Shown here piece by piece: positions 6,145 through 59,790 of a stretch of DNA of 64,000 nt (its first letter is position 1; every line of letters begins with the position of its first letter). Source of the stretch: Candidatus Magasanikiibacteriota bacterium. Its GTDB lineage: Bacteria; Patescibacteriota; Patescibacteriia; Magasanikbacterales; UBA922. The stretch covers positions 3,563 to 67,562 of the forward strand of contig JABIEQ010000011.1 in NCBI GenBank assembly GCA_018651085.1, written 5' to 3'. The notes under the pieces were generated by a model. That model did no database searches and had not been told where the DNA came from. It saw only the letters and a list, made by a program, of their open reading frames with translations. A program made the position numbers and the translations under genes.

Positions 6145-6380
6145 TAGTGTAGCGGTGTTCTCCTAAAAAGTCAATAATTGCTTATAGAACCAGGAGTCCC
6201 TACCAATAGGATAAAATCTGCTTAATCCTACCATATCGTTTTTAAAAACAAAAGCCCCCCATGGGTATATCCTGTGTAAGATATGCACATAGGGGGCTCG
6301 AGGGGGTGCAATACATGCCACCCCTCATAGCGCTTAGGCGAAAGCGCTTCCCGTACCCTCCGTGGGGACTCCTTTGTCCC

Positions 6381-6680
6381 TCACTTATTGATTGTCGGAT
6401 TTCTCATGACCGTCGCCTTCGGCCTTTCACTGAACCCTCCATCTCCGCCCTCAGAACGCTCCATGAGCGCCTGAAGGTGCTCGACTTGACCACTGAGATC
6501 TTCCGGGACCTCAGGCTCGAGAGGATTGTCGTCCTGACGTTCTCCCTCTTCAAGATCTTGTGGTCTAACCCCAGCAGAGAACGCAGCTCCTTCCCACGGA
6601 GCCATCCTCCTTGTGACCTCAGTTGCAGGTCCTTCAAGCTCTTTCTCTCGAGATTTCGTTTCGAAACCAACAGTGCTCAT
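6381..6680 (-). CDS. Hypothetical acidic protein (99 aa) in GC-rich cassette 1.
   Basis: GGGAGG SD 5 nt upstream of the ATG. G/C-ending codons. Lies in a GC-rich block of about 530 bp within the AT-rich host. Low-complexity, acidic sequence. It could instead be a chance ORF in GC-rich non-coding DNA. Confidence 0.35.
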   Translation of the reverse strand: MSTVGFETKSREKELEGPATEVTRRMAPWEGAAFSAGVRPQDLEEGERQDDNPLEPEVPEDLSGQVEHLQALMERSEGGDGGFSERPKATVMRNPTINK

Positions 6681-6747
6681 GTTCCTCCCTTTGCTCTCCT
6701 TTTTTAAAATAAAAGAAGGTCATCCCTGACCCCCTTATAAGGTATTC

Positions 6748-6776
6748 ACTCTACCATTTTTGGCTTTCACTGTCAA
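6748..6776 (-). promoter_or_regulatory. Sigma70-like promoter for cassette 1 (TTGACA-N17-TAGAGT on the minus strand).
   Basis: Read directly on the reverse complement. The -35 box abuts the stop codon of the amidase gene. Confidence 0.45.
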
Positions 6777-14368: not shown

Positions 14369-15343
14369 TTATACTCGTTGTATCTCTTCTTCTAGAGAAA
14401 TACTATAGGTATCATACACCTTTTGTTTAATCTCATCAATAAGTTTTTCTACATCTTCTGCTCGTGCATTTCCAGTGTTCACAATAAAATTCCCATGACG
14501 TTCACTTACCTTTGCTCCTCCGATTTCTTTTCCTTTTAATCCCACTTTTTCTACTAACCACCCTGCTGGTATTTTTTTATTTTTAAGGAACTCTTCTGGA
14601 ACACCAAGATCTTTAAGCGCGTCATGTCTATCATCTTTCACTTCATGGTTTTTAAATATACATCCAGTTGAGGCATGCCCTTGTGGTTGCGTGCTATTTC
14701 TGTACGCAAGATACTCCATGGCTTGTTTTAATCCTGTCGCGTTCTCCCCTTTTTCTAGTGTTATTGTGACTCGTAAAATAACGTCACTATTATGTTTAAA
14801 AATAGTATCTCTATATTGAAAGGCAATGTCTTCTTTTTTTATGGTAGAGACTTCCCCATTTCTATACACCTCTACTGATTCCACGATATCTTTCATTTCT
14901 CCACCAGTAGCACCAGCGTTTCCTCGTACAGCACCACCAATTGATCCAGGAACCCCAACACCCCATTCAAACCCCGTAAGCCCTTCATCTATAGTCACTC
15001 GAGCAAGACCAACGGTTGTCATCCCCGCAGCGCTTGTTATGTGGTTACCTACGACAGTATGTGTTTTATCACTTATTTTTACAACGACTCCATCGAACCC
15101 TTCGTCAGCCACAAGCATGTTACTTCCTCCACCAAAAATCATATATGCTACCCCTTTTTCATCAAGGTACTGCAATAATTCAATAACCGCGTCTACTTTT
15201 TCGACGGTTATGAATATTTTTGCATTTCCACCAATTTTAAACGTAGTATGCTTTTGTAAAGGTTCATCTATTTTTACCTTTCCAAAGTGCTTTATTGTCT
15301 TATATATTTCTTCCATAATTATTGCATTATTCATATTCTTCAC
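14369..15343 (-). CDS. murB: UDP-N-acetylenolpyruvoylglucosamine reductase MurB.
   Basis: FAD-binding FKIGGNA and MIFGGGSNMLV motifs, plus the C-terminal MurB domain. Confidence 0.75.
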   Translation of the reverse strand: MKNMNNAIIMEEIYKTIKHFGKVKIDEPLQKHTTFKIGGNAKIFITVEKVDAVIELLQYLDEKGVAYMIFGGGSNMLVADEGFDGVVVKISDKTHTVVGNHITSAAGMTTVGLARVTIDEGLTGFEWGVGVPGSIGGAVRGNAGATGGEMKDIVESVEVYRNGEVSTIKKEDIAFQYRDTIFKHNSDVILRVTITLEKGENATGLKQAMEYLAYRNSTQPQGHASTGCIFKNHEVKDDRHDALKDLGVPEEFLKNKKIPAGWLVEKVGLKGKEIGGAKVSERHGNFIVNTGNARAEDVEKLIDEIKQKVYDTYSISLEEEIQRV

Positions 15344-15360
15344 GTATCATAACTGTGCTA

Positions 15361-16577
15361 TGAAACGTCTTTCTACTAAGCTTAATCAAACACCCGTTGT
15401 CTACGTTACCCGAGACATTGAACGGGCCCTTGGTCTTCCGGATACGGAAGGTTATTTTATTATCTCAAATGCAACCGAATTTGCCAAGGAGGTGGCTAAA
15501 AATAGAGCGCATATACTCCTTATTGAAGAAGAGACTATTCTTGATACTTGGCAGCTTCTTGAGCATGATAAGACCAATACATTCCTAAAGACTTTATCTT
15601 CTCAACGTATAGTTGTCTTTAAAAACACCCCACATATTGAACGTATTTGTGCTTCTAAACAATATAACCTTTTAAACCCAGCAGCAGATCTTGCTTTAAC
15701 TGTTGAAGCAAAAATTTCTCAAGTGTCTTGGCTTGGAGATCTTGCAACGTATCTTCCCCCATCTGAGATTCTTCTTGGAAAAGATCTTACGTATGCAGGT
15801 ACTCCTTTTATAGTACAATTTAATAGAACACACACTGGTGGCGGTACAATGCTGATTGAATCAGAAGATGATCTTATATCTATAAAGGAACGCTTTCCAA
15901 ATCGTGAGGTACGAAAAAGTACATATATTGAAGGGTACACTATTACTAGTAATAATGTTGTTTCAACATCTGATACCTTTATTGGAAACATTAGCTATCA
16001 AATCACCGGATTATCTCCATTTACTTCTCAACCATTTGCTACCATTGGAAATGATTGGGCCCTTCCACCTAACATTTTAACTGAAAAACAACTTGAACTT
16101 TATACTACTATGGTTAACGCTATAGGTATGAAACTCAAGGGTGCTGGCTGGAAAGGACTCTTTGGTGTTGATGCCCTTGTTTCTTCTAAAGATGGCGCTA
16201 TTTATCTTATTGAAATAAATGCACGTCAACCTGCCTCAACTACATTTGAAAGTGTGCTTCAAGAAGACTCTGGTTCTGTTACCATGTTTGCACTTCATTT
16301 AGCAGCATTACTTGATATTGATTCATCTTCTATGTCTCGAGCATCTCTTTCTTCTGGTGCTCAGATTATTTTAAGACAAAAAGAAGAACCTCTTTCCTCT
16401 GAAACTGTTATGCAGTATAAAGATACGCTTATTGAGGCCGGGTACACAGTCATGAGTTATCCTGGCACAAAGCCAGGGACAGATCTTTTACGGATTCAAA
16501 CAGAAACTTCTTTGATGGACGCACATAATGTCTTTTCACCTAAGGGAAACCAGATTATTGATATACTTTCTTTATGA
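15361..16577 (+). CDS. ATP-grasp domain protein (about 405 aa).
   Basis: GVDALV...GAIYLIEINARQPAS is an ATP-grasp signature. Start chosen at MKRLSTKL just after murB; the longer ORF-track N-terminus runs antisense through murB and is spurious. Confidence 0.6.
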
Positions 16578-17359
16578 CAGATAAAAAAACTTTAACACCT
16601 GAAGCACTTTCGATTATTGATGCCTATAAGGGTTTGTCTTTTGGTGGAACATGTACTGTTTCAACACCGTACATGAATAACAAACGTCAACAAGTGCGTG
16701 CAGCTCTTCGTGTGTTGATTGGTAAAGGCTCTTCAGAAGAAATTGTTGAAGAGGCTACTCTTATTGCCTTACGTGAGAATACGGATCTTACAAAAATGAA
16801 TGAGAAAGACCTACGTACATTTCTTATTGACCATAACTTAGGTATTGATTGTTCTGGACTTGTGTATCACGTCCTTACTGCTGAATATCGTACACGATAC
16901 AAAAAATCTCTTTCAACAATACTCTCGTTTGTGTACGCAAAAAATATTATACGAAAAATGCTTAGTCGTTTTCGTCCAATTGAAAACACTAATGTGTCTA
17001 CACTTGCACACGAGAAAAATAGCACTCCTATTTTATTAAAAGATATCTCTCCAGGAGATCTTATTGCGGCTATTGAAGCAAAAGGCTTTGGTACTCCAAA
17101 TCACATTCTTATTGTTCATGAAGTTACCTATGTAGATAATCTCCTTTCTTCTTTTTCCTATACACATTCACTTCGATGGAAAACAGATGATACGTTAACT
17201 CATGGTGTGCGACAAGGAACAGTGACAATTATTAATGAAGATAAGTCTATCCTTGAACAACGTTGGGAAGAACAAGGCCATGTTGGTGAAAAAAATCAGA
17301 CGTTAGCTCTTTTATTATCTTCTAACGCCGTTTCTCTCTTACGGCTAAAACAAAAATAA
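16574..17359 (+). CDS. Hypothetical protein with an NlpC/P60-like Cys-His signature.
   Basis: GIDCSGLVYHVL followed by HILIVHEV resembles a papain-like NlpC/P60 catalytic dyad. 4-nt overlap with the ATP-grasp gene. Confidence 0.4.
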   Translation: MTDKKTLTPEALSIIDAYKGLSFGGTCTVSTPYMNNKRQQVRAALRVLIGKGSSEEIVEEATLIALRENTDLTKMNEKDLRTFLIDHNLGIDCSGLVYHVLTAEYRTRYKKSLSTILSFVYAKNIIRKMLSRFRPIENTNVSTLAHEKNSTPILLKDISPGDLIAAIEAKGFGTPNHILIVHEVTYVDNLLSSFSYTHSLRWKTDDTLTHGVRQGTVTIINEDKSILEQRWEEQGHVGEKNQTLALLLSSNAVSLLRLKQK

Positions 17360-17460
17360 TCTTGGATATCCAAGATTATTTTTTACTCACAGTATTCCTA
17401 TACTAGAAATTCTATGGGTACTCTGGAGTTCGCGACAGCGAACCGTTACCCCCTCCCTTA

Positions 17461-17913
17461 TCAGCGGTTGTCCCTACCGAAGACCTGAGACATCATGCTC
17501 TCGACAGTGACCGTTCCTCGTCCGGGGTAAAAGGATCCCCGTAGGGTACCCATCCGAACGCTTTTTTGGGTTATAGTTTGGATCAGCTTCCGCAGATCCC
17601 CGGCCATTTCCTCACCCAAGATCCCTGCTTGATCTCTGTTCACTCCCCCGAGAACGATACTGATGGCCTTCTTGTTGAACCAAGCAGCTCCACCTGTAGG
17701 AGGCATCTTTCTGACTAGTTCATGAAGAATCCTCGTTCTCTGATCACTCGTGAAAAGTCCTCTTCTTGAGGGTGTAACCCCCACAAAAAGAAGGAGGAAG
17801 GGAGTTTGAATCTCCCTAGAGACATGGATCATTGCTTCAAGAGCTCGCAGGAACTGCTCTCGTGAGACAAACTCTGACCCAAACTGTAGACGCACTGATA
17901 TCTCCTTTTTCAT
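17461..17913 (-). CDS. Hypothetical protein (150 aa) in GC-enriched cassette 8.
   Basis: GGAGG SD then ATG. G/C-ending codons (CTG, GAG, CGC). The block 17420-17990 stands out as GC-enriched against AT-rich flanks. Confidence 0.45.
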   Translation of the reverse strand: MKKEISVRLQFGSEFVSREQFLRALEAMIHVSREIQTPFLLLFVGVTPSRRGLFTSDQRTRILHELVRKMPPTGGAAWFNKKAISIVLGGVNRDQAGILGEEMAGDLRKLIQTITQKSVRMGTLRGSFYPGRGTVTVESMMSQVFGRDNR

Positions 17914-24178: not shown

Positions 24179-25752
24179 AATGTTTCTTCTTTTTCAAGGT
24201 CTTTATCTGTAACTACAATACGCTGTTGATTTTCTTCTTTTAAAAGTGCACTGGCTTTTATCTTTTCTATGGCCATATGAAACTCTACTGTTTTTTCTCT
24301 TTTTTCAATGTACTTTTTTCCTTCATCTAATATTCTTTGCAAACTCATTTTATCTTTTAAGGATAAGTCTTCTATTCTGCCTTCTTCAAACAATGAATCT
24401 AACTCGGGAATAACATCAACTGATAATCTACTTAAGTATCTAAGATCTAATTCTTTTCCCTCTTCTGTAAATCTATACACATTTTTTTCAGCTATTACTC
24501 TATCAACATTAATTGCTGAAACAATACTCAATGCAACAGCTCCGAGGATAAGGCTAGAATGGAAAAACTTTCTAAATGATAATTTCCCAATAAGGCTTGC
24601 CCCAGAAAAAACTAATAGTAAAAATACTAAATAGATGAACCATTCAACATATAATCGTAACACTGTGAACCCAAATGCATCTTGATATAGGTTCATCCGT
24701 TTAAGCGCTGAAGCAGCGACCACTCCTACCTGAATAATTAACAATGTTTGAAGCACATTGATAACTTTATGCGATCCGTGACGAACAAAAGCTCTGTATG
24801 AGATAAGAAGTAATATTGCAGCAAATATAATCACCCACACAAGTTCAAAAAATCCTTTTCTGGCATATTCTGCAAAGGTAAGGCCATTTTCTAATACAAA
24901 GTCAGAGGTGCCAAACAAATGACGAAACTGTACGGCCACAAATGCAAGAAATAATACATTTACCAGTCCTAACACAATCCCTGCAATGACACCATCTATC
25001 TTTCTTACTTTTTCATTCTTTTTTTCAAGGACATACTCTTTTGCAACGACAACATAAAATAGTCCACCAAGCCATAAGGTGATAATTCCTGTTCTAAATA
25101 CACGCCAAGCAAGTTCTAAGTCCACGTCAACAAATACAAGTTTTTGTACCCACTCAGCAAAAATCGGATCTGCTTTTGAAAATAACCATGTAAATAACCC
25201 TAAAATTGGAACAGCAATAACAAACCCGAGCAATATTTTTCGTAAAATATCTTTATTCATGTCTTGTTTCCAAATAAAAACATCTTTTATCATGAGCCAC
25301 CATTTACGAAACAACAAATCAATGTCGCTAAACAATGGTATTTTGCTTAAAGAAAATAAATATTTTTGTGGATTTTGTAATGGCAAAAAAGCTGTATATA
25401 AAACTGAAAGAATTAATATAAATACTGGTATTCCCCCACTTCTTAATTCATTGTTGAGTGTTACTACTGATACTCCCATGATACAAATAGGTATAAGCAA
25501 TGTTAATGCCCAAGGTTGACGAAACTTTTTCAATGCTAATGTAATGATTGTAAACCCTACGAGATATACTAATATAAAAAAGAGGAAGTTTATTCCTATT
25601 TCTTTTTCCCAAAAAAATATGTCATATACAATTCCTATTCCTAATCCGAATGTAATAAAAAGAAGTCTATGCCAACGTTCCTTTGGTTGAGTTCCTACAA
25701 GTTTATTCATATTGATGTAGTTAATGTTCTTTTTACTATACCAAAACACCAC
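24175..25752 (-). CDS. Hypothetical polytopic membrane protein with a charged, coiled C-terminal cytoplasmic region.
   Basis: At least 10 predicted TM helices. No catalytic motif recognised. The true start may be the internal MNKLVGT. Confidence 0.45.
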   Translation of the reverse strand: MVFWYSKKNINYINMNKLVGTQPKERWHRLLFITFGLGIGIVYDIFFWEKEIGINFLFFILVYLVGFTIITLALKKFRQPWALTLLIPICIMGVSVVTLNNELRSGGIPVFILILSVLYTAFLPLQNPQKYLFSLSKIPLFSDIDLLFRKWWLMIKDVFIWKQDMNKDILRKILLGFVIAVPILGLFTWLFSKADPIFAEWVQKLVFVDVDLELAWRVFRTGIITLWLGGLFYVVVAKEYVLEKKNEKVRKIDGVIAGIVLGLVNVLFLAFVAVQFRHLFGTSDFVLENGLTFAEYARKGFFELVWVIIFAAILLLISYRAFVRHGSHKVINVLQTLLIIQVGVVAASALKRMNLYQDAFGFTVLRLYVEWFIYLVFLLLVFSGASLIGKLSFRKFFHSSLILGAVALSIVSAINVDRVIAEKNVYRFTEEGKELDLRYLSRLSVDVIPELDSLFEEGRIEDLSLKDKMSLQRILDEGKKYIEKREKTVEFHMAIEKIKASALLKEENQQRIVVTDKDLEKEETL

Positions 25753-25781
25753 AATTAGTAAATAGTATATTTATAATAAAC

Positions 25782-25854
25782 AAAAGCAGCCTTTCATTAA
25801 AAGGCTGCTTTTGCACGAACCCGACGATCTCCCCCTCGAGATGCCGTCGGGTTC
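25782..25854 (-). terminator. Tandem hairpins: an AT-rich host-like terminator and a GC-rich cassette hairpin.
   Basis: AAAAGCAGCCTTTCATTAAAAGGCTGCTTTT, followed by GAACCCGACG-N18-CGTCGGGTTC which contains CTCGAGGGGG. Sits between the polytopic membrane gene and the cassette 2 ORF. Confidence 0.55.
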
Positions 25855-25881
25855 AGGTTGAAAGAACGTGGTGGCTTGGCC

Positions 25882-26769
25882 TCAGCCCTCGGCGAGGAGC
25901 AGACACATCATGGCGCAGATGACGTGTTGGCCGAGAAGGCTTTCTTTGGCGAGCCACAGGATGTCGGCGCGGGTGCACCACCGGTCCCCTTCGATGAGCT
26001 CCATGTCCTCTCGTCGTCCCGGGATCATGAAGCAGTCATCTTGCTTCCCGAGAAAGCGAGCTCCATCCTGTTGAACCGAAAGAGGGTCGGTGACGCTCTT
26101 CTGGTTGAACAACTCCGAGTAGGGCGGCTTGTTGCCACCATGGAGCTGGATAAAATTCGCCAACGAAGCATGGAGAGGACTCGTGACCACAACGTGACCA
26201 TCAAGGTTGCTGTTCCCAGGTTCGACTTTGGTTCGAAGGAGAATCAAGTCCTCCTCTTCGTCACGGATGATGACGATAGCGCCAGGGTGATTCCCGACCC
26301 TACGCACCATGGGCTGAACCCAGTCATGGACCTCTCGCCCCGCTGCGTGAACACCAACTCCCACGACTTCGAAGAAGCTGAGGCTGCTCTGGCCCTCTTG
26401 AGGAGGCCTCTGAGCCATGACCATGGTGTCTGCAGCCAAGAAGACGAGTCGCTCTTTCCCGGTCTTGACGTCTTGCCCGGTACTGAAGCTCTTGAAACCC
26501 GTGAAGGGCACGACTTCACTCGGAGTGCTCTCGAAACCTTCGAGGGCCGATTCTGGCCGACTGAAGTTCCAAGGCCCCTCGAAGGTCACCCGCATGAGGC
26601 TCTGACCAATTACCCAGCCAGAGAGTTTTCCTCGTCTATCACTGGGCTTGTTTGCCCACTCGAAGATCTCGGACCACCCCAAAAGGAGTTCTCCGAAACC
26701 GACCGCATTTGCGGCCATCTTAGACCGCTCCTGGGCCGCCTTGACCCAGTCTTGGACACTTTCGTCCAT
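25882..26769 (-). CDS. Hypothetical protein (295 aa) in GC-rich cassette 2.
   Basis: AGGAGGG SD 4 nt before the ATG. G/C-ending codons. A fully overlapping antisense ORF also exists. The minus strand is preferred because of the SD and the tandem downstream hairpins. Confidence 0.45.
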   Translation of the reverse strand: MDESVQDWVKAAQERSKMAANAVGFGELLLGWSEIFEWANKPSDRRGKLSGWVIGQSLMRVTFEGPWNFSRPESALEGFESTPSEVVPFTGFKSFSTGQDVKTGKERLVFLAADTMVMAQRPPQEGQSSLSFFEVVGVGVHAAGREVHDWVQPMVRRVGNHPGAIVIIRDEEEDLILLRTKVEPGNSNLDGHVVVTSPLHASLANFIQLHGGNKPPYSELFNQKSVTDPLSVQQDGARFLGKQDDCFMIPGRREDMELIEGDRWCTRADILWLAKESLLGQHVICAMMCLLLAEG

Positions 26770-26777
26770 CTTCCCTC

Positions 26778-26793
26778 CTATCCAATTGGATAG
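26778..26793. promoter_or_regulatory. Perfect 16-nt palindrome CTATCCAATTGGATAG abutting the cassette 2 SD; candidate operator.
   Basis: Seen in the sequence, immediately 5' of GGAGGGAAG-ATG on the minus strand. Confidence 0.3.
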
Positions 26794-26978
26794 CTTTTCG
26801 TCTTTCTACATCATCCCCCATGGATTCAGCAGTCTAACGACAATCTGTGACACCCCATATATTTCTATATAGTGAGATGTTTTTATCTATATATAATGTT
26901 TTATATACAAATAAAAAAGGAGGTATAGTGTACCTCCAATAGATGAATATATACTACTTTTCCTTTTTTGTCAATGAT

Positions 26979-27833
26979 TTATGTGAGATATGCCTGAAGC
27001 GCCTCTTGCCAAGAACGAAGAAGCTTTAATTTTGTATTATTAAGAGTAGAGTGCATTGGTCTTTTTGCTGGACGCGGAAATGCATCCCCTGAGACAGGTG
27101 CGGTGTTAACGGTTTCACCTGAAATTAAAAATACTTCTTTTGCAAATTCATACCAGGTACAAGCACCATCATTTGTTATGTGATAAATTCCAGACGGTGT
27201 ATCTTCTTCAATAAGTTCTTTTACGGCATTTGCTAAATCAGGTGCATAGGTTGGAGACCCAGTTTCTTCGTGTACAAGATTAAGGCTATCTTTTCCACCT
27301 TCTCTAACCAACCAAAGCATGGTGTCTACAAAACTTTTTTTAGATCCTTCCCCTGTTCCTGGTTGTCCAAATAATTTAGATAGCCGAATAATATAATACT
27401 TCTCTGCATTCTTTTGTACATTCTGCTCTCCAAGGTATTTTGTTTGTCCATATTTATTTACGGGGTTTGGCGTATCATCTTCCTTGTACCCTCTAATATT
27501 ATTACCGTCAAATACATAATCCGTAGAAAAGTGTACAAATAAAACATCTAATTCTTTACAGACTTTAGCTAAATACCCGGGGGCAACTCCATTTATTTCT
27601 TGTGCCTTTTTATAGGTATCTTCATTTTCTTCTACAGCGTCAACGGCGTTAAAAGCTGCAGCATTTATTACAATGTCTGGGGCACATTCTTTTAGCATTT
27701 TCTCGCACATGTCTTTATCTGTAATATCAAGATCATCTTTGTCCCATGCATGTACAGTATACGTATCAGAAAAGACTCGAACGAGTTCTTGCCCGAGCAT
27801 ACCATTTTTTCCGATGATGCAGATATTTTTCAT
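26979..27833 (-). CDS. rfbD: dTDP-4-dehydrorhamnose reductase RfbD/RmlD.
   Basis: N-terminal IIGKNGMLG Rossmann motif and the SDR-type YxxxK region. Downstream hairpin GGAGGTATAGTGTACCTCC plus a T-tract. Confidence 0.8.
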   Translation of the reverse strand: MKNICIIGKNGMLGQELVRVFSDTYTVHAWDKDDLDITDKDMCEKMLKECAPDIVINAAAFNAVDAVEENEDTYKKAQEINGVAPGYLAKVCKELDVLFVHFSTDYVFDGNNIRGYKEDDTPNPVNKYGQTKYLGEQNVQKNAEKYYIIRLSKLFGQPGTGEGSKKSFVDTMLWLVREGGKDSLNLVHEETGSPTYAPDLANAVKELIEEDTPSGIYHITNDGACTWYEFAKEVFLISGETVNTAPVSGDAFPRPAKRPMHSTLNNTKLKLLRSWQEALQAYLT

Positions 27834-27839
27834 ATACTG

Positions 27840-28265
27840 TTATGCTTTTAATTCTGCTAATTTCTCATCTCGTACTTTAAGATACTCATCATAATCTTCG
27901 ATGTAGTCGCTTCTATTTGGATTATAATTTGTTGAAGACAATGCCAAAAGCACTGATCCTTCTGAAAAATCTTTAAAGTGATGCCATACATAGTTTGCCA
28001 CATACAGACCACTTGTTGGCCCTTCCATCTTGAATTCTTCTAATCCATTCCCTTGATCAATCACTGCGGTACAGGTTCCATTTATAAGAATGAAAAATTC
28101 TTTTTCTTGTAAATGACAGTGAGATCCAGTGTCTGAATTAGGCTGAGTTATAAAATAGACTCGCTTTACGTCAAAATCAATGTACTCTTTAAGCTCAACC
28201 GGACTCATGATAAATTTTTCGGTAGGAATTTTTTTAATTTCTACCATTTCAAATGGAGGTTTCAT
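27840..28265 (-). CDS. FdtA/QdtA-like dTDP-4-keto-6-deoxyhexose 3,4-isomerase (WxcM-like cupin).
   Basis: KRVYFIT ... HCH ... LALSSTNYNPNRSDYI matches the FdtA pattern RVYYIF/HAH/LASDYYDETDYI. Confidence 0.6.
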   Translation of the reverse strand: MKPPFEMVEIKKIPTEKFIMSPVELKEYIDFDVKRVYFITQPNSDTGSHCHLQEKEFFILINGTCTAVIDQGNGLEEFKMEGPTSGLYVANYVWHHFKDFSEGSVLLALSSTNYNPNRSDYIEDYDEYLKVRDEKLAELKA

Positions 28266-28277
28266 ATAAAAAGTATA

Positions 28278-29336
28278 TTATGTTGTGGCTGAAGCCATTT
28301 CTTCTTTTGATCGATCAAGTTCTTCTTGAAATACGTTCATTTCACTTTTTTTCTTTTCCCATAACATTTCTACCCAGTCAGTGTTTTCTTTGTACCAGGT
28401 AATGGTTTCCTCTAACCCCTCTTTAAACTTTTCTCTTGTGTATTCTGGTTTCCATCCTAGTGCTTCTATCTTTGACGCATCAACAGCGTAGCGTCTATCG
28501 TGCCCAGGCCTGTCTGTTACAAATTCAATTTTATCTTCACCAAATCCCATGATATCTAGCATCATTTTTGTTATTTCCAGGTTGTTTCTTTCATTGTCTG
28601 CCCCAATATTATATACGTCTCCAGGAACTCCTTTATGAAGTAATAAATCTAACGCTCTGGCATGATCTTTTACATGAATCCAATCACGTACATTTAGTCC
28701 GTCTCCGTAGAGTGACACGTTTTCTCCTTTAAGGAGACGAAACACAAAAAATGGAATCACTTTTTCTGGAAATTGGTATGGCCCATAATTATTTGAACAA
28801 TGCGTTACAATCACCGGCGTTTTATGTGTGACAAAATACGCATTACACATAAGGTCCCCTCCAGCTTTTGCAGCAGCGTAGGGCATGTTTGGCATGACTG
28901 GTGTGTTTTCTGTAAAAAGATCATCACTATCTAGAGGTAACGATCCATATACTTCGTCAGTTGAAACGTTTACAAATTTGGTGATGTTATTTGTTTTTAC
29001 GGCGTCAAGAATCATTTGTGTTCCAAGCACGTTTGTAAGGACAAAGTCTTTACACCCACCATGGATTGATCTATCTACATGAGTTTCTGCAGCAAAATTA
29101 ATCACGTGTGTGATGTTATGTTTTTGCATTGTTTCATTTAATCTATCAAGATCAATAATATCCCCTTGTACAAATGTATACCGAGGATCGTTTTCTATGT
29201 GTGTATGATTTTCAACGTTCCCTGCGTAGGTAAGTTTGTCGTAATTGACGACGTTATATTCTTTATGTGTTTCAAGAATATGATGGATAAAATTTGATCC
29301 AATAAATCCGGCTCCCCCAGTCACTAAAATGTTCAT
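28278..29336 (-). CDS. rfbB: dTDP-glucose 4,6-dehydratase RfbB/RmlB.
   Basis: MNILVTGGAGFIGSNF, catalytic YAAAKAGGD, and the C-terminal extension typical of RmlB. Confidence 0.85.
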   Translation of the reverse strand: MNILVTGGAGFIGSNFIHHILETHKEYNVVNYDKLTYAGNVENHTHIENDPRYTFVQGDIIDLDRLNETMQKHNITHVINFAAETHVDRSIHGGCKDFVLTNVLGTQMILDAVKTNNITKFVNVSTDEVYGSLPLDSDDLFTENTPVMPNMPYAAAKAGGDLMCNAYFVTHKTPVIVTHCSNNYGPYQFPEKVIPFFVFRLLKGENVSLYGDGLNVRDWIHVKDHARALDLLLHKGVPGDVYNIGADNERNNLEITKMMLDIMGFGEDKIEFVTDRPGHDRRYAVDASKIEALGWKPEYTREKFKEGLEETITWYKENTDWVEMLWEKKKSEMNVFQEELDRSKEEMASATT

Positions 29337-29344
29337 AATGCTAC

Positions 29345-29737
29345 TTATTCTTCGTAAATAATAAATTCCTTATCGTCCTTTGATCGTAAAGGCTTGTCTG
29401 AAATCATAATAAGGACACTTTCTTTCACTCGTATATTTTTAAAACTAAAGGCAACGTACGGTGGAAGATGAATAATTCCATCCCCTGGTCCTACAACCAT
29501 TTCCTTTTCTTCTTCTGTTATCGCTTGCACAAACTTTGTTTTGATTTTTCCTTTTTCTACAAAAAAAACCACATCTGTTGAACGGTAATAAAGGTTTCCT
29601 ATAATTGCCTTATCCTTTAGTGTTAGTCGTGAAATATAAACATCCCCTACTTTTACCCAGTCAAGAAGTCGGCCTTTTCTTCTTCGATCTTGTTTAAACT
29701 GATATTCGGTAATAAATTGCTTTGCGTTTCTTGTCAT
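29345..29737 (-). CDS. Small cupin-fold protein, WxcM/FdtA-like paralogue 1.
   Basis: 130 aa. Shares NKPLRSKD and the overall pattern with the adjacent paralogue and with the FdtA-like gene. Confidence 0.4.
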   Translation of the reverse strand: MTRNAKQFITEYQFKQDRRRKGRLLDWVKVGDVYISRLTLKDKAIIGNLYYRSTDVVFFVEKGKIKTKFVQAITEEEKEMVVGPGDGIIHLPPYVAFSFKNIRVKESVLIMISDKPLRSKDDKEFIIYEE

Positions 29738-29746
29738 ATTGTTATA

Positions 29747-30145
29747 TTACAATACTCTATACGCTATATTATCTTTACTTCTCAATGGTTTATTACTAAA
29801 AAATACCACGACAGCTTTTTCTGTTCCAATATTTTTTGTAGCATGCGCAATATGTGTCGGAATATGTACGGCCTCGGTTCCTTTTTCAAAATAACATACC
29901 CGCTTCTTTTTGGTTTCAATATGCTCGAAGGCTGCCTGAATTCTCCCACTTTCTACATAAAACATGACTCTTGTATCTGTATGATAGACATTTCCTGTTA
30001 TAACCTTTGGCTCTATGGTTAATCGTGAAACATATACTCCCCCAATCTTTACACTTGAGAGTATTCGCCCCTTTTTACTTTCATCATCCTTAAAGCTAAA
30101 CAAACTAATGAAAGGTGATTGAGTTTTCCCTTCTTTATCCGCCAT
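29747..30145 (-). CDS. Small cupin-fold protein, WxcM/FdtA-like paralogue 2.
   Basis: 132 aa. A paralogue of the preceding ORF (VYVSRLTI / VYISRLTL; SNKPLRSKDN). Confidence 0.4.
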   Translation of the reverse strand: MADKEGKTQSPFISLFSFKDDESKKGRILSSVKIGGVYVSRLTIEPKVITGNVYHTDTRVMFYVESGRIQAAFEHIETKKKRVCYFEKGTEAVHIPTHIAHATKNIGTEKAVVVFFSNKPLRSKDNIAYRVL

Positions 30146-38688: not shown

Positions 38689-38805
38689 TTTTTATTGAAT
38701 GCGTTCTTTTATAAAGACCTTTTCCTTTTCTTGTTTCCTTACGTCTAGGTACTAGGAGAAGGAGAAGGTCGTTTTGACCTGAACTGAGGCTTCGCAATCA
38801 CCACA

Positions 38806-39357
38806 ATGAATCGCAACCGAGAGGACGTTATGAACGCTTCCATCGTACTGATCTTGAAGTTCTGGGAAAGCCTGGGCAACGCCATCGACGGAGACGAACT
38901 CTATCCTCATCTTTTCCTAGGTGACTCCCACACCTACGTGTCCTCCCAGGGCAATATGTGGGGGCCGAGCGATGGCCGTCACTACGTCGACAAGCTGCTG
39001 TGGAACACGTTGGGGAAACAGCAGCTTCCAGCCCCGACCTTACCCGGTCGTGCTTTCAGCGTCGTGACGTGGGCCGACCGCCCGGTGGAAGGACTCGATG
39101 AGATCTTCGGCCCAGCAGTTGATAACCCCGAGGCCCTTGATGAGATGCTCAAGAAGGGCTGCGGTGGTTGGTTTGAGTTCTCGGAGACCTCGAACAACTG
39201 GGATGTCCGCCATTACGGCTCTGTCTTCCTGCTTCCCACGGGAGCAAAGATCCTCGTCACCATCTGCTACGATCGCAACCAGTCTGCCACCGCTGAGGTG
39301 CTCGAGGCGGAACGCACGGCCCGGCGTGATAAAGCCCTCATCGGGCACTGGATGTGA
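38806..39357 (+). CDS. Hypothetical protein (183 aa) in GC-rich cassette 3.
   Basis: AGGAGAAGGAGAAGG SD region. G/C-ending codon usage. Downstream GC hairpin GCACGAACAACGTTCGTGC. No recognisable motif. Confidence 0.5.
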   Translation: MNRNREDVMNASIVLILKFWESLGNAIDGDELYPHLFLGDSHTYVSSQGNMWGPSDGRHYVDKLLWNTLGKQQLPAPTLPGRAFSVVTWADRPVEGLDEIFGPAVDNPEALDEMLKKGCGGWFEFSETSNNWDVRHYGSVFLLPTGAKILVTICYDRNQSATAEVLEAERTARRDKALIGHWM

Positions 39358-39592
39358 TCAGGTCAGAATACCCATGAAAGCCGCGGAATCGGCGTCGAGT
39401 TATTATGACGACTAGCACGAACAACGTTCGTGCCAAGAAGCTCATGTGACTCGGCGCCCCGCGGCTACCGACTATCTTTTTTACTTTATAGAAAGGATTG
39501 AGGAATAAAAAACACCTATATATAGGTGTTTTTTTGTTTCTTGATTTTATATACACATGTTCTACACACTCTATCACCAGAGCCCCATTTGA

Positions 39593-50930: not shown

Positions 50931-50972
50931 CTTGCAGAAAGTACATATGTCCCTTTGTGTTTTTTCTGCAAG
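50931..50972 (+). promoter_or_regulatory. 10-bp stem hairpin (CTTGCAGAAA ... TTTCTGCAAG) in the predicted 5' UTR of the cassette 4 gene.
   Basis: Perfect inverted repeat with a 22-nt loop, located between the predicted -10 box and the SD. Confidence 0.4.
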
Positions 50973-51014
50973 AAAGCCGCTTGTGGCTAAATACTCACAC
51001 CAAGGAGGGACGAG

Positions 51015-51371
51015 ATGAAGATCCGGCTGAAGATCAATCGGGAAGAGATTGTACCCAAAGAGAAAGGGATCCTGACGGGTCTTCTCGAGTACTTTGGGAA
51101 AGGACTTGAAGTTGCCAATAGCCAGATGGTGCTGACCTTTGAGGTCACATGCCATCTCACCGGACCTCAAGGCCCGGAAGACATTATGACCATCTGGATG
51201 AACAAAGAAGAAGCCCAAGAGCTCTCTGACGCAGGGGTCCCCCTTCTCACCGTGATGGCGCCTCGGTCAATGCTTCAAAACCGCAGAGGGCTCACCTACG
51301 ACGCCCCATGGCAAGACATCGAGGTCCTCGAAGAGGACCAGCCACCACCCCCGCCGCTCTCGGCAGCCTGA
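51015..51371 (+). CDS. Hypothetical protein (118 aa) in GC-rich cassette 4; ends ...EEDQPPPPPLSAA.
   Basis: AAGGAGGG SD 6 nt before the ATG. G/C-ending codons. Followed by a GC hairpin and then the AT-rich terminator at 51476-51504. Confidence 0.5.
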   Translation: MKIRLKINREEIVPKEKGILTGLLEYFGKGLEVANSQMVLTFEVTCHLTGPQGPEDIMTIWMNKEEAQELSDAGVPLLTVMAPRSMLQNRRGLTYDAPWQDIEVLEEDQPPPPPLSAA

Positions 51372-51475
51372 CAACCAACAAGGAGAAGAAATGGCACGCG
51401 CACCACCCTAAAAAAAGGGATGAGCACCGTGCCATCCCGACCTATGTGTTTGATATCTCAAATCTATAGGTTTAT

Positions 51476-51504
51476 AAAAAACTGCTACATATAGCAGTTT
51501 TTTG
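51476..51504 (+). terminator. Rho-independent terminator between cassettes 4 and 5.
   Basis: AAAAACTGCTACATATAGCAGTTTTTT. Confidence 0.6.
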
Positions 51505-51915: not shown

Positions 51916-52100
51916 ACTAACTAAAGCGATATACTTAACAAAATATGATATATTTGTCAATATGCACCATCGTCCTTATCACACTATGGGGAACAAGAAT
52001 ATGACACTTCGTATGTTTGCTCCCCTAAATACCTGTTCAGTTTGGTGCTCGTGGGGAGGCACAACACAAACTGAATTCAATAGTGTGGAGGAAACGAACG

Positions 52101-52622
52101 ATGAGCACTGGCAACAAGGGTGGCGAGCTGCTGCCGCGCCTCAAGTACGAGTGGATCCCGGACCAAGGGGCCTTCCGGGTGACCCAGGAGGTCAGGCACT
52201 CCTCGAAGGAGTCGGCGATGCGTGCCCTGTGGGGTGTGTTTCGCGAAGGCTGGATCACGCGGGACAACTTCCTGACGATGCGCAGCCGCCTGATGGAGTC
52301 GAGACTGCCCGAAGGACAGATCGACCCGATCGTCAAGCGCTGCGAAACTGGGAAGGGGATCCGGCTCATGACCTACGCTGGTCCCTGGACCCAGTTCATC
52401 TACTCCCAGGCGGCACTCCGTCAGATCATGGAAAACTGCGTCGGACAGCTTCTGCTGACCCAGTACCAGTCTGAGGAACTCCTGAAGGAAGCCCTCGAAG
52501 AGTTCGAGGATCTTCCTGAAGAGCGCCAGCCGCTTGATGACATCCCGACCTCTGGTCTCCTCGAGATCCACATCATCGTGGGCGCCGGCCGGAAAGCCTC
52601 TCCGTCGCCAGACACTCATTAG
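52101..52622 (+). CDS. Hypothetical protein (173 aa) in GC-rich cassette 6.
   Basis: GGAGGAAACGAACG-ATG start. Strongly G/C-ending codons (CTG, GAG, CGC, GAC). Downstream GC hairpin GCCCACACCTTCGGCGTGGGC. Confidence 0.5.
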   Translation: MSTGNKGGELLPRLKYEWIPDQGAFRVTQEVRHSSKESAMRALWGVFREGWITRDNFLTMRSRLMESRLPEGQIDPIVKRCETGKGIRLMTYAGPWTQFIYSQAALRQIMENCVGQLLLTQYQSEELLKEALEEFEDLPEERQPLDDIPTSGLLEIHIIVGAGRKASPSPDTH

Positions 52623-52758
52623 CCCACACCTTCGGCGTGGGCACAGGCTCACGTCTGGAGGGACGTGATGAAGGTGGGACGGCGTTTCGCTCACGCGATA
52701 CGCCGACCCTGCAGTGCACTTTATGTATATAAAGTTCAGTGCAGGAAAAAATGTACAT

Positions 52759-52797
52759 AAAAATACACCAATTTAGTTGGTGTATTTTTATTTTTTA
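52759..52797. terminator. Bidirectional terminator shared by cassette 6 and uvrC.
   Basis: AAATACACCAATTTAGTTGGTGTATTT followed by a T-tract, immediately after the uvrC stop. Confidence 0.6.
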
Positions 52798-54050
52798 ATC
52801 TTTCGTCTTTTCCTTTGGAATGCAATGGCGAACCTATGAGCTTCATCTCGTACGTTTACAAGCATGTCCTGATTCATTTTTACCCATTTAATTAATACCC
52901 TATTTGCATCAGGAATAATAAATTCATTTTTCTTTCTCGCAGCTCCCTTTGCGATACCCACAATTGGCCTATCTACTCCAGCGAGTGCTAACACTTTTTT
53001 GGCGGTATTTACTTGTGGCTTTCCGCCATCAATTAAGAAAAGATCTGGTAATGGCCATTCTTTATGTTTTAAGCGTCTTTCTAACACTTCTTTCAAACAA
53101 GCCACATCACTTTGTCCTTCGACTGTTTTTATTTTAAATTTTCTATATTGTCTTTTATCTGGGCCCCCATGAGTAAAGACAACCATTGAACCAACTTTAT
53201 TTGAACTTCCTAAATTTGAAATATCATACCCTTCTACTTTTTGGATTTGACCTTCAACATAAAGGCTGTCCTCAACAAAACTTTTATTGATAAGTGTAAT
53301 GTCTTGAATCTTTGTAAGATTTTGTACTTGATCTCGCAGTCTTGCCGCTTCTTCAAAGGCGTATGCTTTGGCCGCTTTTTTCATGTCTTTTTCAAAAGTC
53401 TTTATCAACCGTTTTTTTCCACCTTTTAAAAATGTAACAAGTGGTGCAATGACTTTTTTCTTATAATCTTCCTTGGTAATCTCTTTTGTACACACTCCAA
53501 GACATTGTCCCATTTGATAATACAAACAAGGTTTATCTCCATCCTTTTTTCTTCTTTTCTTTTGACAGGTTGAAAGATGAAATAATCTTGTAAGAATTTT
53601 AATGGCAGCTTTTGTATTTAACCCAGGATATGGTCCAAAAATATATCGATACTGTTTTTTCATCTCATCTGTTTCTATTTGCATGAGATCATGTTCACGA
53701 GCAGTTTCTAATATTGGGTACCCTGATCTACTTATTGTAATGTAATTCCAACTTTTATTATCTTTCCCAATAACATTATATTTTGGCTGATACTTTTTAA
53801 TGGCATTTGCCTCAAGCACAATAGCTTCAAGTACTGATTCAGTTGATTGTGTTTTTATACTTTGTACTTCATGGATCATTCTTTCAATTGGTCGAGAGGT
53901 TCTTTTTCCTACAAAGTAACTCGTTACACGGCTTTTTAATGATGTTGCCTTTCCAACATAGATAATATCTTTCTCTTGGTTAAAAAAAAGATATATCCCC
54001 GGACTATCTGGGAGTCTTTTCGCTTTCTTTTTCCCTTTGTCGTTATCCAT
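52788..54050 (-). CDS. uvrC: Excinuclease ABC subunit C, short form (420 aa; GIY-YIG plus the UvrC family domain, no C-terminal HhH module).
   Basis: GIY-YIG GIYLFFNQEKDIIYVGKATSL. The Cys-rich QCLGVCT region. Confidence 0.65.
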   Translation of the reverse strand: MDNDKGKKKAKRLPDSPGIYLFFNQEKDIIYVGKATSLKSRVTSYFVGKRTSRPIERMIHEVQSIKTQSTESVLEAIVLEANAIKKYQPKYNVIGKDNKSWNYITISRSGYPILETAREHDLMQIETDEMKKQYRYIFGPYPGLNTKAAIKILTRLFHLSTCQKKRRKKDGDKPCLYYQMGQCLGVCTKEITKEDYKKKVIAPLVTFLKGGKKRLIKTFEKDMKKAAKAYAFEEAARLRDQVQNLTKIQDITLINKSFVEDSLYVEGQIQKVEGYDISNLGSSNKVGSMVVFTHGGPDKRQYRKFKIKTVEGQSDVACLKEVLERRLKHKEWPLPDLFLIDGGKPQVNTAKKVLALAGVDRPIVGIAKGAARKKNEFIIPDANRVLIKWVKMNQDMLVNVRDEAHRFAIAFQRKRRKIKK

Positions 54051-57918: not shown

Positions 57919-58128
57919 AGGTTAGTAGTGTATCACACGTTTTTTTGTATTAAAAAATATCTACACAACTAGGTAGATATTCTTTTCCTTTCGTCCTGTC
58001 ATAATCAGTCACATATGGACTCATCAGTTTCGGTCTCACCGAAAGAGGATGCCGATCTGTGATCGGCTTCCCTCCCTGTCCCCAATTTCATGGGGGTCTA
58101 TAGACCCGTTTCATGATCTCCCTCCTTG

Positions 58129-59649
58129 TCAGTATGCTCGATTCAGTTGTGCTACGTGTTCCCTCATGACCTGGATGAGGTCATATGGGCCGACAGGTCT
58201 CCCGAGGACATCCTCAACGAGTTGGAACCCTGTACTGACACCTCCCTTGCAGAAGATGTTCGTCTGCAACCATCGGTTGAGCCCCTCAAAGTTTCCCTTT
58301 CGGATCTCCACCTCGATGTTGGGGTGCACTCCTTCGATCTCTCGCCAGAACATGGCTGCAACCATGTTGCCGATGCCGTAGGTGCCGTAGTACCCGATCC
58401 CCATGAAGGGATGGGGGTCTCTCAGACACCCCAAGGCGTCACTCTCGGGCTCTACCCCGAGATAGTGCAGTGAGAGCTCGTTCCACCTGGCGGAGAAATC
58501 TTCCACCTCAAGGCGCCCCTCGATGAGCTCCTGGTAGATTCTCACTCGCAGGAGGATGTGTGAGTTGTAGGTCAGCTCGTCGGCTTGCACCCGCACCGTT
58601 TGACGGGTGCATCTGTTGAGTGCTGAGTAGAGCTTCTCTGGACTCCACTCCTTGAGTTCAGGGAACATGTCTCCCATCATATCGAGCATCAGCTCGAGGA
58701 AAGGTAGGCTTCTTCCCACCCGACACTCGTAGAACCGCGCGATACTCTCGTGAAGACCTGTCGACGCCGGTCTTGCACCAGGGGTGTACTTCCACTCAGG
58801 AAGAAACCCTTGCTCGTAGCGAGCGTGCGCGGCCTCGTGCAGTCCAGGAAGGAGCAGCCGCCACCACTTCTCGTACTCAAGTGGAATACTGATCCGAACG
58901 TCATCTGGCGCCGCAATGGGTGCACAGAAGGGATGACTGCTTTGAGCAATCTCGAGCTTGTCGACCTCCAATCCCATCCGGTTTAAGCACCCCATGGTGA
59001 AAAGCCTGAATGCATTGGCCTCATGGGGCTTGTTGAGTGCCGGAATCTCACCCAAATCAGGAAAGGCCACGGCTTCCTCCACGAGTGGTTGAAGATCTCT
59101 ATGGAGATCTTCGAGAATATCAAGGAGCCACTTCGTTGAGGGAAGTCCCGGCTCCTGCGTACGCGCAAGACCCGCGTAAGGATCATCTGGATCCGCGGCG
59201 AGCCCCTTCATACGCTGGAGCTCGACGATTTTCTTCAAATGCCCTCCAAGGTGCTCCATGGTTCGCCGACCGTCTTTTCCGGCTTCTTCCCAGGCACTCT
59301 GTCCCACCATGCCGGCGTGAACAGTCTGCCTCACCAATTTCATTGGCAAGGTTCTTGGCAGCTGGCTTTCTCTGAGTGTTGCCCTTATGATCCCCATTTG
59401 CATCTCGGAGAGATCCCCCGGATTGGCCAACAGCCTGAGGGCGTCCGCGCGAAATTCCTCAGAACGCCAGAGTACTTGCTGCCGTCCGGAAATTTCAGCC
59501 GTTTTGCTTGCGAAGTATTCACCAGGATGCTGGTGATCGGTCGTCGCCATCTGCCATTCGAGCTCCCCCTTGAGCCCCTCAAGACACCAGATCTGCTTGA
59601 CCGTTGCGAGCCACGCCACAAACGCTTGCTGCTGCTTACTCATCGTCAT
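58129..59649 (-). CDS. M32-family metallo-carboxypeptidase (carboxypeptidase Taq-like) in GC-rich cassette 7.
   Basis: HEXXH region LHEAAHARYEQG. RVQADELTYNSHILLR. YLGVEPESDALGCLRDPHPFMGIGYYGTYGIGNMVAAMF; all match the Taq carboxypeptidase signature blocks. G/C-ending codons. Start set at MTMSKQQQ. Confidence 0.7.
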   Translation of the reverse strand: MTMSKQQQAFVAWLATVKQIWCLEGLKGELEWQMATTDHQHPGEYFASKTAEISGRQQVLWRSEEFRADALRLLANPGDLSEMQMGIIRATLRESQLPRTLPMKLVRQTVHAGMVGQSAWEEAGKDGRRTMEHLGGHLKKIVELQRMKGLAADPDDPYAGLARTQEPGLPSTKWLLDILEDLHRDLQPLVEEAVAFPDLGEIPALNKPHEANAFRLFTMGCLNRMGLEVDKLEIAQSSHPFCAPIAAPDDVRISIPLEYEKWWRLLLPGLHEAAHARYEQGFLPEWKYTPGARPASTGLHESIARFYECRVGRSLPFLELMLDMMGDMFPELKEWSPEKLYSALNRCTRQTVRVQADELTYNSHILLRVRIYQELIEGRLEVEDFSARWNELSLHYLGVEPESDALGCLRDPHPFMGIGYYGTYGIGNMVAAMFWREIEGVHPNIEVEIRKGNFEGLNRWLQTNIFCKGGVSTGFQLVEDVLGRPVGPYDLIQVMREHVAQLNRAY

Positions 59650-59716
59650 TGCCCTGTCCTCTTGTCGCTGGTTTTTGCCACGTGTATACAGCATGTCTAC
59701 ACAACTTGCGTTCACT

Positions 59717-59745
59717 AACGTAATGGATATTTCCTTCTACGTCAA
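59717..59745 (-). promoter_or_regulatory. Possible promoter for cassette 7 (TTGACG-N17-TACGTT on the minus strand, weak -10).
   Basis: Read on the reverse complement, between the uvrB terminator and the M32 gene. Confidence 0.25.
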
Positions 59746-59756
59746 GCTTATTAATT

Positions 59757-59790
59757 AAAAAAGCTGAGAATATTCTCAGCTTTTATTTTT
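59757..59790 (-). terminator. Rho-independent terminator of uvrB.
   Basis: AAAAAAGCTGAGAATATTCTCAGCTTTT. Confidence 0.6.

Follow-up and report, generated by a model that had tools for sequence, protein, structure and literature searches.

A single-repeat NDP-hexose 2,3-dehydratase-like gene in a GC-rich unit at the end of a dTDP-sugar cluster of a Magasanikbacteria genome

The DNA analysed here, hereafter the window, is a 64,000-nucleotide (nt) stretch from a Candidatus Magasanikiibacteriota bacterium (GenBank assembly GCA_018651085.1, contig JABIEQ010000011.1, positions 3,563 to 67,562 of the forward strand). The subject of this report is a minus-strand open reading frame (ORF) with an ATG start at 26767-26769 and a TGA stop at 25882-25884, encoding a protein of 295 amino acids (aa) that we call HexD. 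An earlier note, made from the sequence without database searches, had described HexD as an orphan carried by a cassette. HexD is in fact a member of Pfam family PF03559 (nucleoside diphosphate [NDP]-hexose 2,3-dehydratase), matching the profile with an E value of 3.5e-17 (62.9 bits against a gathering cutoff of 25), and an exhaustive HMMER search found 437 relatives at E<=1e-3, some of them full-length. The gene lies directly after RmlB-, FdtA- and RmlD-like genes on the same strand, with the RmlB-like gene approximately 1.5 kb upstream. The features of the locus are listed in Table 1.

Table 1. Features of the HexD locus and GC-rich islands of the window (SD, Shine-Dalgarno sequence; UTR, untranslated region; CDS, coding sequence).
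Feature	Position	Strand	Description
CDS of HexD	25882..26769	-	single-repeat (half-size) NDP-hexose 2,3-dehydratase-like protein; Pfam PF03559, EvaA 4J7G, subfamily alignment
311-aa antisense ORF, TTG start	25858..26793	+	open frame opposite the GC-rich CDS; judged not to be a gene
SD AGGAGGG	26773..26779	-	3 nt (AAG) before the ATG
Perfect 16-nt palindrome CTATCCAATTGGATAG	26778..26793	.	small 5'-UTR hairpin, 6 bp, 4-nt loop, -6.1 kcal/mol, abuts the SD
5' leader	26770..26856	-	47% GC versus 22% in the AT-rich spacer 26857-26978
Hairpin GGAGGTACACTATACCTCC and T6	26907..26937	-	terminator of the upstream RmlD-like gene, setting it apart from the HexD gene
Promoter-like TTGACA-17-TATATT (11/12), candidate	26946..26974	-	upstream of the RmlD-like terminator hairpin
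GC-rich 3'-UTR hairpin with CTCGAGGGGG	25816..25855	-	12-bp outer and 4-bp inner stem, -25.5 kcal/mol, no U-run
AT-rich intrinsic terminator GCAAAAGCAGCCTTTTAATGAAAGGCTGCTTTTGT and T-rich tail	25768..25814	-	core CAGCC/GGCTG
RmlD-like reductase	26979-27833	-	Pfam, identical contig
FdtA-type cupin	27840-28265	-	Pfam, identical contig
RmlB-like 4,6-dehydratase	28278-29336	-	Pfam, identical contig
Seven sharp GC islands (50-61% GC)	6201-6750, 17351-17900, 25751-26850, 38701-39500, 50951-51500, 51951-52800, 58001-59750		

The PF03559 core of HexD comprises residues 129-276, and approximately 85 aa are inserted after the N-terminal helix. EvaA (PDB 4J7G), the only relative with a solved structure, is matched at E=8e-12, with HexD aligning to both EvaA repeats. 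Enzymes of the EvaA type (EvaA, TylX3, OleV, Gra-orf27 and SpnO) belong to the same Pfam family but have two tandem Nudix-like repeats in one chain of approximately 450-490 aa, whereas HexD has one. When residues 129-276 are aligned with two-repeat homologues, repeat 1 gives 44-64 bits and repeat 2 gives 10-21 bits; HexD corresponds to one EvaA repeat, closest to the catalytic N-terminal half, and its chain ends where repeat 1 ends. In EvaA, pocket A is the active site, with E139 and E190 being essential, and pocket B is an inactive leftover of gene duplication (review of nucleotide-sugar dehydratases, PMC8987622). The equivalent of the catalytic E139 (xEPGN) is kept in HexD as E183 in KVEPGN. 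HexD shares with the EvaA-type enzymes the core motifs FF..G, W.QP, KxEPGN, HGG..P and GxRF, as well as linkage to a deoxythymidine diphosphate (dTDP)-glucose 4,6-dehydratase gene supplying the substrate, and differs from them in its insertion and in a distinct C-terminal helix motif. The window gene is found not in an antibiotic cluster but in a glycan cluster of a member of the candidate phyla radiation (CPR), and its catalysis is a prediction.

By sequence comparison, HexD is a member of a populous, unnamed single-repeat subfamily of PF03559 with proteins of about 200-310 aa. Among the best 149 cluster representatives, 48 are single-repeat proteins of 320 aa or less. End-to-end matches include P0020 (283 aa, over residues 5-292), P0022 (270 aa, over 3-289) and P0033 (308 aa), and it is these three that have the approximately 85-aa insertion in common with HexD, a minority trait in the subfamily. 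Members such as P0020-P0027 share the architecture, invariant residues and N-terminal helix of HexD, although identity between HexD and any member is only approximately 25-33%. A 30-member alignment (A3) has invariant W38, G163, P184, G185, S202, N205, H210 and D235, with E183 among the near-invariant positions, and HexD retains all residues of both classes. The subfamily profile matches the window ORF at E=4e-59 and covers EvaA twice (residues 39-234 and 262-450, E=2e-52). A profile search of a word-indexed database returned almost exclusively two-repeat enzymes and yielded no taxonomic placement for the single-repeat forms. NCBIfam has no model naming the single-repeat subfamily, and literature searches found no description of single-repeat PF03559 proteins. 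HexD itself has no match in PHROGs, PADLOC or NCBIfam, and no relative among the viral contigs searched.

A protein 100% identical to HexD is present in metagenome-assembled genomes (MAGs) of Candidatus Magasanikbacteria (CPR/Patescibacteria), where it is annotated as hypothetical (HN726_03115), on contigs of up to 863 kb. Some MAG annotations start at M18; the 295-aa start is preferred because the N-terminal helix beginning at ATG 26767-26769 (W.DW..AQ...S.M) aligns with the homologues and is conserved across the subfamily. Copies of the gene are 100% identical in DNA sequence across at least eight contigs, which derive from several samples and assemblers. Where the island meets its AT-rich flanks, the DNA is likewise 100% identical in every contig retrieved, indicating that the GC island is not an assembly chimera. 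One variant protein, with a single-residue difference, comes from a low-coverage contig. Another contig, L170 (GCA_018647845.1, JABGSG010000012.1, 10824-11228), tracks the window exactly to 25896, 14 nt before the stop codon, and then continues to the contig end with 405 bp of unrelated 60% GC sequence bearing a Glyco_transf_9 fragment, giving a 322-aa variant protein. This candidate alternative 3' end of the gene is most likely a chimeric contig end.

The metabolic setting of HexD is repeated elsewhere: NDP-sugar genes adjoin the subfamily gene in six of eight independent contexts. Besides the RmlB-, FdtA- and RmlD-like genes of the window, these are HIT-RmlB-RmlD-like-HexD on the P0020 contig, RmlB-x-FdtA-RmlD-x-HexD at locus L174, an NTP-transferase gene with RmlB-/RmlD-like epimerase genes at L173, NTP-transferase, RmlD-like and RmlB-RmlC fusion genes at L178, and RmlB-like and NTP-transferase genes at L179; L171 and L177 have no adjacent NDP-sugar genes. 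More generally, members of the subfamily are often found beside RmlA, RmlB, RmlD or FdtA genes. The L174 cluster is orthologous to that of the window, its proteins being 75% (RmlB), 71% (FdtA), 52% (RmlD) and 31% (HexD) identical to their window counterparts. Scans of genome and metagenome contigs with the RmlD-like protein found none closer than 55% identity and no sister genome. Within the sugar cluster of the window, at 29345-30145 (minus strand), are two short adjoining ORFs (130 and 132 aa), one of which has only a C-terminal Polysacc_synt_C flippase domain; these may be a split or decayed Wzx-type gene. At L177, in another genome, the single-repeat homologue directly follows a gene (3-881) that likewise has a high GC content (55% versus 40% downstream) and by eye has the look of a polysaccharide deacetylase; GC-rich units may come as glycan-related pairs in that genome.

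The HexD gene appears to be transcribed separately from the sugar genes that precede it, as indicated by the terminator after the RmlD-like gene, the SD and the double hairpin at its 3' end, and the same layout is seen at L172 and L175. The SD had been reported with a spacing of four nt; AGGAGGG is present, with a spacing of three. A near-consensus TTGACA-17-TATAxx site is also found ahead of the L172 and L174 homologues and ahead of the other GC islands. A longer fold can be drawn at the RmlD-like terminator, in which the A-tract pairs with the T-tract. At L174 (5210-5260), the -35 TTGACA of the homologue is the loop of the terminator hairpin of the upstream gene (AAATTTACC-TTGACAAA-AGGTAAATTT), making terminator and promoter overlap compactly. 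In the window the two elements are arranged the other way round: the promoter-like site comes first and the hairpin follows.

The 3' region of the HexD gene is strongly structured (-51.5 kcal/mol, z=-6.2, 0 of 200 shuffles as stable). The tandem arrangement described by the earlier note, a GC hairpin followed by an AT-rich terminator, is real, but the GC stem consists of a 12-bp outer and a 4-bp inner helix instead of 10 bp. It is the AT hairpin (25780-25814) that, with its T-rich tail, has the form of an intrinsic terminator; the GC hairpin at 25816-25855 is U-less. In the window and at L172 and L175, a U-less GC hairpin is followed within 1-6 nt by an A-tract/T-tract terminator. The terminator core CAGC(C/T)...(A/G)GCTG is found downstream of homologues in the window, at L172 and at L174/175/176, and there are four independent matches to the pattern in the 1.58 Mb examined, three of them after subfamily genes. 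The terminator had been regarded as host-like; because its core recurs after homologous genes, it is better considered part of the conserved unit. The terminators at L172 1405-1433, L174 6003-6029 and window 25782-25812 share AAAA(G/A)CAGC(C/T)...(A/G)GCTG(C)TTTT, and it is odd that they are more conserved than the preceding protein (28-31% identity). U-less ("I-shaped") hairpins are known, as are 5'/3' stem-loops that stabilise mRNA. The GC-rich stem in the window 3' UTR likewise has no U-tract, and a similar role is suggested by its position.

The decamer CTCGAGGGGG of the GC hairpin was thought to be a motif shared with another GC-rich unit of the window, termed cassette 1. It does occur in both hairpin regions, and these are its only two copies in the window (25831-25840, minus strand, and 6297-6306, plus strand), but its orientation in cassette 1 is reversed relative to the likely gene there (6381-6680, minus strand) and such sharing is at chance level: 46 10-mers are shared among the seven GC islands, compared with a mean of 34.6 and a maximum of 52 for shuffled islands.

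The window has a GC content of approximately 39% overall and approximately 36% outside of its islands, and nearly all of its genes are on the minus strand. The HexD gene has a 57% GC content (versus 36%) and a GC content at third codon positions (GC3) of 0.68 (versus 0.25); the excess reaches into both UTRs and stops at the AT terminator. Every one of the seven GC islands contains a single ORF that has an SD of the GGAGG type and, upstream, a near-consensus TTGACA-17-TATAxT site; on the 3' side is at least one GC hairpin in the UTR followed by an A-tract/T-tract AT-rich terminator. By one fixed criterion the islands make up 8.2% of the window (about 8-10% overall) versus 0.2% in a comparison set of other AT-rich loci totalling 922 kb. 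No Pfam, NCBIfam, PHROG or PADLOC match was obtained for five of the seven island products. Islands 3-7 have a common codon regime that is anticorrelated with that of the host, and the codon usage of the HexD gene resembles that of islands 4-7 (r=0.5-0.65). In each of the eight contexts compared, the subfamily gene exceeds its surroundings in GC content, also at third codon positions: 0.57 versus 0.36 in the window, 0.55 versus 0.40 at L172, 0.47 versus 0.33 at L174 (where GC3 is 0.41 versus 0.21), 0.48 versus 0.39 at L178, 0.40 versus 0.32 at L179, 0.67 versus 0.59 at L171, 0.45 versus 0.40 at L173 and 0.51 versus 0.46 at L177. GC-rich islands in Magasanikbacteria were not described in the literature searched.

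Several other explanations of the gene and its signals bear weighing. We give practically no credence to the 311-aa plus-strand ORF as the real gene. It is complete, with a TTG start, as the earlier note had pointed out, and compositional periodicity, the check that the note had proposed, fails to separate the strands clearly. In the antisense ORF, codon position 2 coincides with position 2 of the minus-strand gene and GC1 exceeds GC3, which speaks against its being a gene. The strand is settled by homology, since the minus strand has a Pfam match and 437 homologues and the plus-strand product has no Pfam or NCBIfam match, no homologue and no SD. In addition, the gene callers of the source collection select the minus-strand gene wherever a contig spans the whole ORF; on one truncated contig (L168) the cut antisense ORF is called instead. 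The antisense frame stays open because stop codons are AT-rich, making it a by-product of GC-rich coding. It also seems improbable that the palindrome at the SD is regulatory, either as the operator of a dimeric repressor or as a translational switch, the roles that had been proposed for it. The palindrome is a perfect 16-nt dyad at 26778-26793, as noted earlier, although it extends over the first 2 nt of the SD instead of ending ahead of it, and a small hairpin near the predicted 5' end is also found in the L172 and L174 leaders, past near-consensus promoters. The sequence and position of those hairpins are unlike those of the window, however, and the palindrome is absent from both loci. It pairs only 2 nt of the SD, leaving GGAGGG unpaired in the minimum free energy fold; the leader as a whole folds unremarkably (z=-1.4), this is the sole copy in 64 kb even at 3 mismatches, and no regulator gene is adjacent. 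Palindromes of this size also occur at chance frequency: perfect ones of 16 nt or longer number six in the window versus 1.28 expected, but four are A-tract/T-tract bidirectional terminators and the remaining two are at chance level, with 67% of simulated sequences having at least one. A 5' stabilising role for the leader hairpins is possible by analogy. Nor is it at all likely that HexD is a decaying remnant, the surviving N-terminal half of a two-repeat 2,3-dehydratase that has lost its function. Its half size, its best alignment to repeat 1, the Gln at the EvaA E190 position and a divergence far above that of its neighbours (31% versus 52-75% identity) would fit such a remnant, but dozens of cluster representatives are equally single-repeat and have the C-terminal motif that two-repeat enzymes lack. 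Every subfamily-invariant residue is present, the ORF is intact with a strong SD, and there is no trace of repeat 2 past the stop codon, where only approximately 70 nt precede the terminator.

The origin of the GC-rich unit is a separate question. The cassette of the earlier note holds up in so far as the unit is self-contained, looks foreign in composition and has a strong SD and a two-hairpin 3' end of its own. The idea of a recent insertion is weakened because a distant relative has the same gene/hairpin/terminator layout at the end of its orthologous dTDP-sugar cluster, and the unit appears to have been long resident in AT-rich genomes because that relative keeps both the slot and the AT terminator core. 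We consider it possible but rather doubtful that the gene was recently acquired, as a single gene, from an unsampled GC-rich donor, landing between host signals and not yet ameliorated; the transferred fragment would be the leader, the CDS and the U-less hairpin of the donor, and the other GC islands would be alike. The compositional deviation extending into both UTRs, the codon usage shared with islands 4-7 and opposed to that of the host, and the density of islands in the window relative to the other AT-rich loci all agree with this, as does the report that up to 13% of Patescibacteria DNA is horizontally acquired, with single-gene transfers being common (PMC12455944). Like the single-gene transfers and small islands described there, the HexD unit is a compositionally deviant single gene in a streamlined CPR genome, and the 8-10% of the window made up of such units is within the reported range; what differs is that there is no identifiable donor and no mobility gene here, and that a distant relative has a homologous unit in the corresponding slot. 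No close donor is apparent, the best non-self relative of HexD being approximately 30% identical and that of the island 7 product, an M32 peptidase, peaking at 31%. Neither direct repeats nor terminal inverted repeats flank the unit, the search for mobile-element ends yielding nothing beyond weak AT-rich 11-nt arms. The Pfam-annotated genes within 10 kb include no transposase or integrase, and the viral contigs searched contain no relative. Tentatively, and with still less confidence, GC-richness may be a persistent property of the locus and not a transient mark of recent transfer, which would imply a process that acts on certain transcription units of AT-rich CPR genomes, speeding up their evolution while maintaining their high GC content. 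The flanking enzymes are 52-75% identical between relatives and HexD approximately 30%, yet the HexD gene exceeds its neighbours by 14-21 GC points, with an excess at synonymous sites as well. Alleles may have been replaced again and again by way of the conserved flanks, or gene conversion at recombination hot spots may be GC-biased; if the property is persistent, the other six islands of the window would be cases of the same kind. For the GC excess our preferred guess is repeated xenologous replacement, with the conserved flanks as the route.

Taking these observations together, we think it somewhat probable that the locus is a monocistronic minus-strand gene for a stand-alone, single-repeat PF03559 protein of the Nudix fold, with the following roles offered as the best explanation. 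HexD would act on the dTDP-4-keto-6-deoxyhexose made by the neighbouring RmlB, probably as a homodimer mimicking the two-repeat enzyme, and its product, a sugar lacking the 2-hydroxyl or modified in another way, would go into a surface glycan. The gene would be transcribed as its own unit, with the downstream AT hairpin as the actual terminator, and the strong SD, small 5' hairpin and GC hairpin of the 3' UTR would favour expression and mRNA stability. Its GC-rich composition would be that of a xenologue or repeatedly replaced allele at a conserved slot ending the sugar cluster. A number of observations weigh against this interpretation. The EvaA E190 position is Gln233 in HexD; an invariant Asp, D235 in the motif QDG(G/A)RF, lies two residues on, and because it occupies the place of AEQG in EvaA, the second acid may be shifted and not lost. 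AlphaFold2 models were of low confidence, with a predicted local distance difference test (pLDDT) score of 35 from the single sequence and 42 from a 19-sequence alignment, and because both runs scored low, the Nudix fold, dimer and pocket are all predictions. Neither the 3-ketoreductase of the usual 2,6-dideoxy pathway nor RmlA was seen within 10 kb. In a profile search, none of 160 other RmlD-containing loci had a PF03559 gene beside RmlD, suggesting that HexD would be accessory and not a core step. The best promoter-like site precedes a terminator hairpin, and the gene copies have no sequence variation usable for gauging selection.

An integron cassette was also considered and rejected as an identity for the unit. 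The attC sites of integrons are imperfect palindromes of 57-141 nt with RYYYAAC and GTTRRRY cores. The hairpin at the HexD locus is 40 nt, its flanks (CCTGAAC/GTTCGTG) do not fit those cores, no integrase or recombinase is found among the Pfam-annotated genes within 10 kb, and the units are scattered through the window and do not form an array. Integron cassettes likewise consist of a single ORF followed by an imperfect palindrome; the window units differ in carrying their own promoter-like sites.

Elsewhere in the window, island 7 encodes an M32 (Taq-type) carboxypeptidase (58129-59715, minus strand; Pfam 3e-87), the true start of which probably lies downstream of the listed GTG. In a search of 5.8 billion proteins nothing other than itself came closer than the 31% match mentioned above, making it highly divergent like HexD. 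Perfect palindromes of 26-32 nt with A5-6...T5-6 arms, apparently bidirectional intrinsic terminators, are located at 420-445, 17352-17383, 39507-39534 and 59759-59784 and are the main source of the surplus of long palindromes. A long minus-strand ORF at 14369-15343 and a long plus-strand ORF at 14826-16577 overlap by approximately 500 bp, with a local rise in GC content at 14851-15100, and it is likely that the two are not both genes. The GC skew stays negative from 1 to 64000, so the window includes neither a replication origin nor a terminus, and tRNA and Rfam scans of the 64 kb found no tRNA, rRNA or Rfam family.

As judged from its sequence, the HexD gene encodes an as yet uncharacterised protein, a single-repeat variant within a known enzyme family, and the metabolic genes around it suit that family. 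To our knowledge, all sugar 2,3-dehydratases described so far have two repeats, one of them a dead relic of a duplication. A widespread stand-alone form with one repeat, still linked to dTDP-sugar genes, would be a present-day counterpart of the enzyme before that duplication and would offer a simple system for understanding how the active site is put together. It would also point to 2-deoxy or otherwise unusual sugars on the surfaces of CPR bacteria, whose lifestyle depends on attachment to host cells. The density of fast-diverging, GC-rich and individually transcribed genes in a streamlined genome of 37% GC is a compositional puzzle, and the GC excess of the same gene family in eight genomes bears on transfer, recombination and base-composition drift in reduced genomes.

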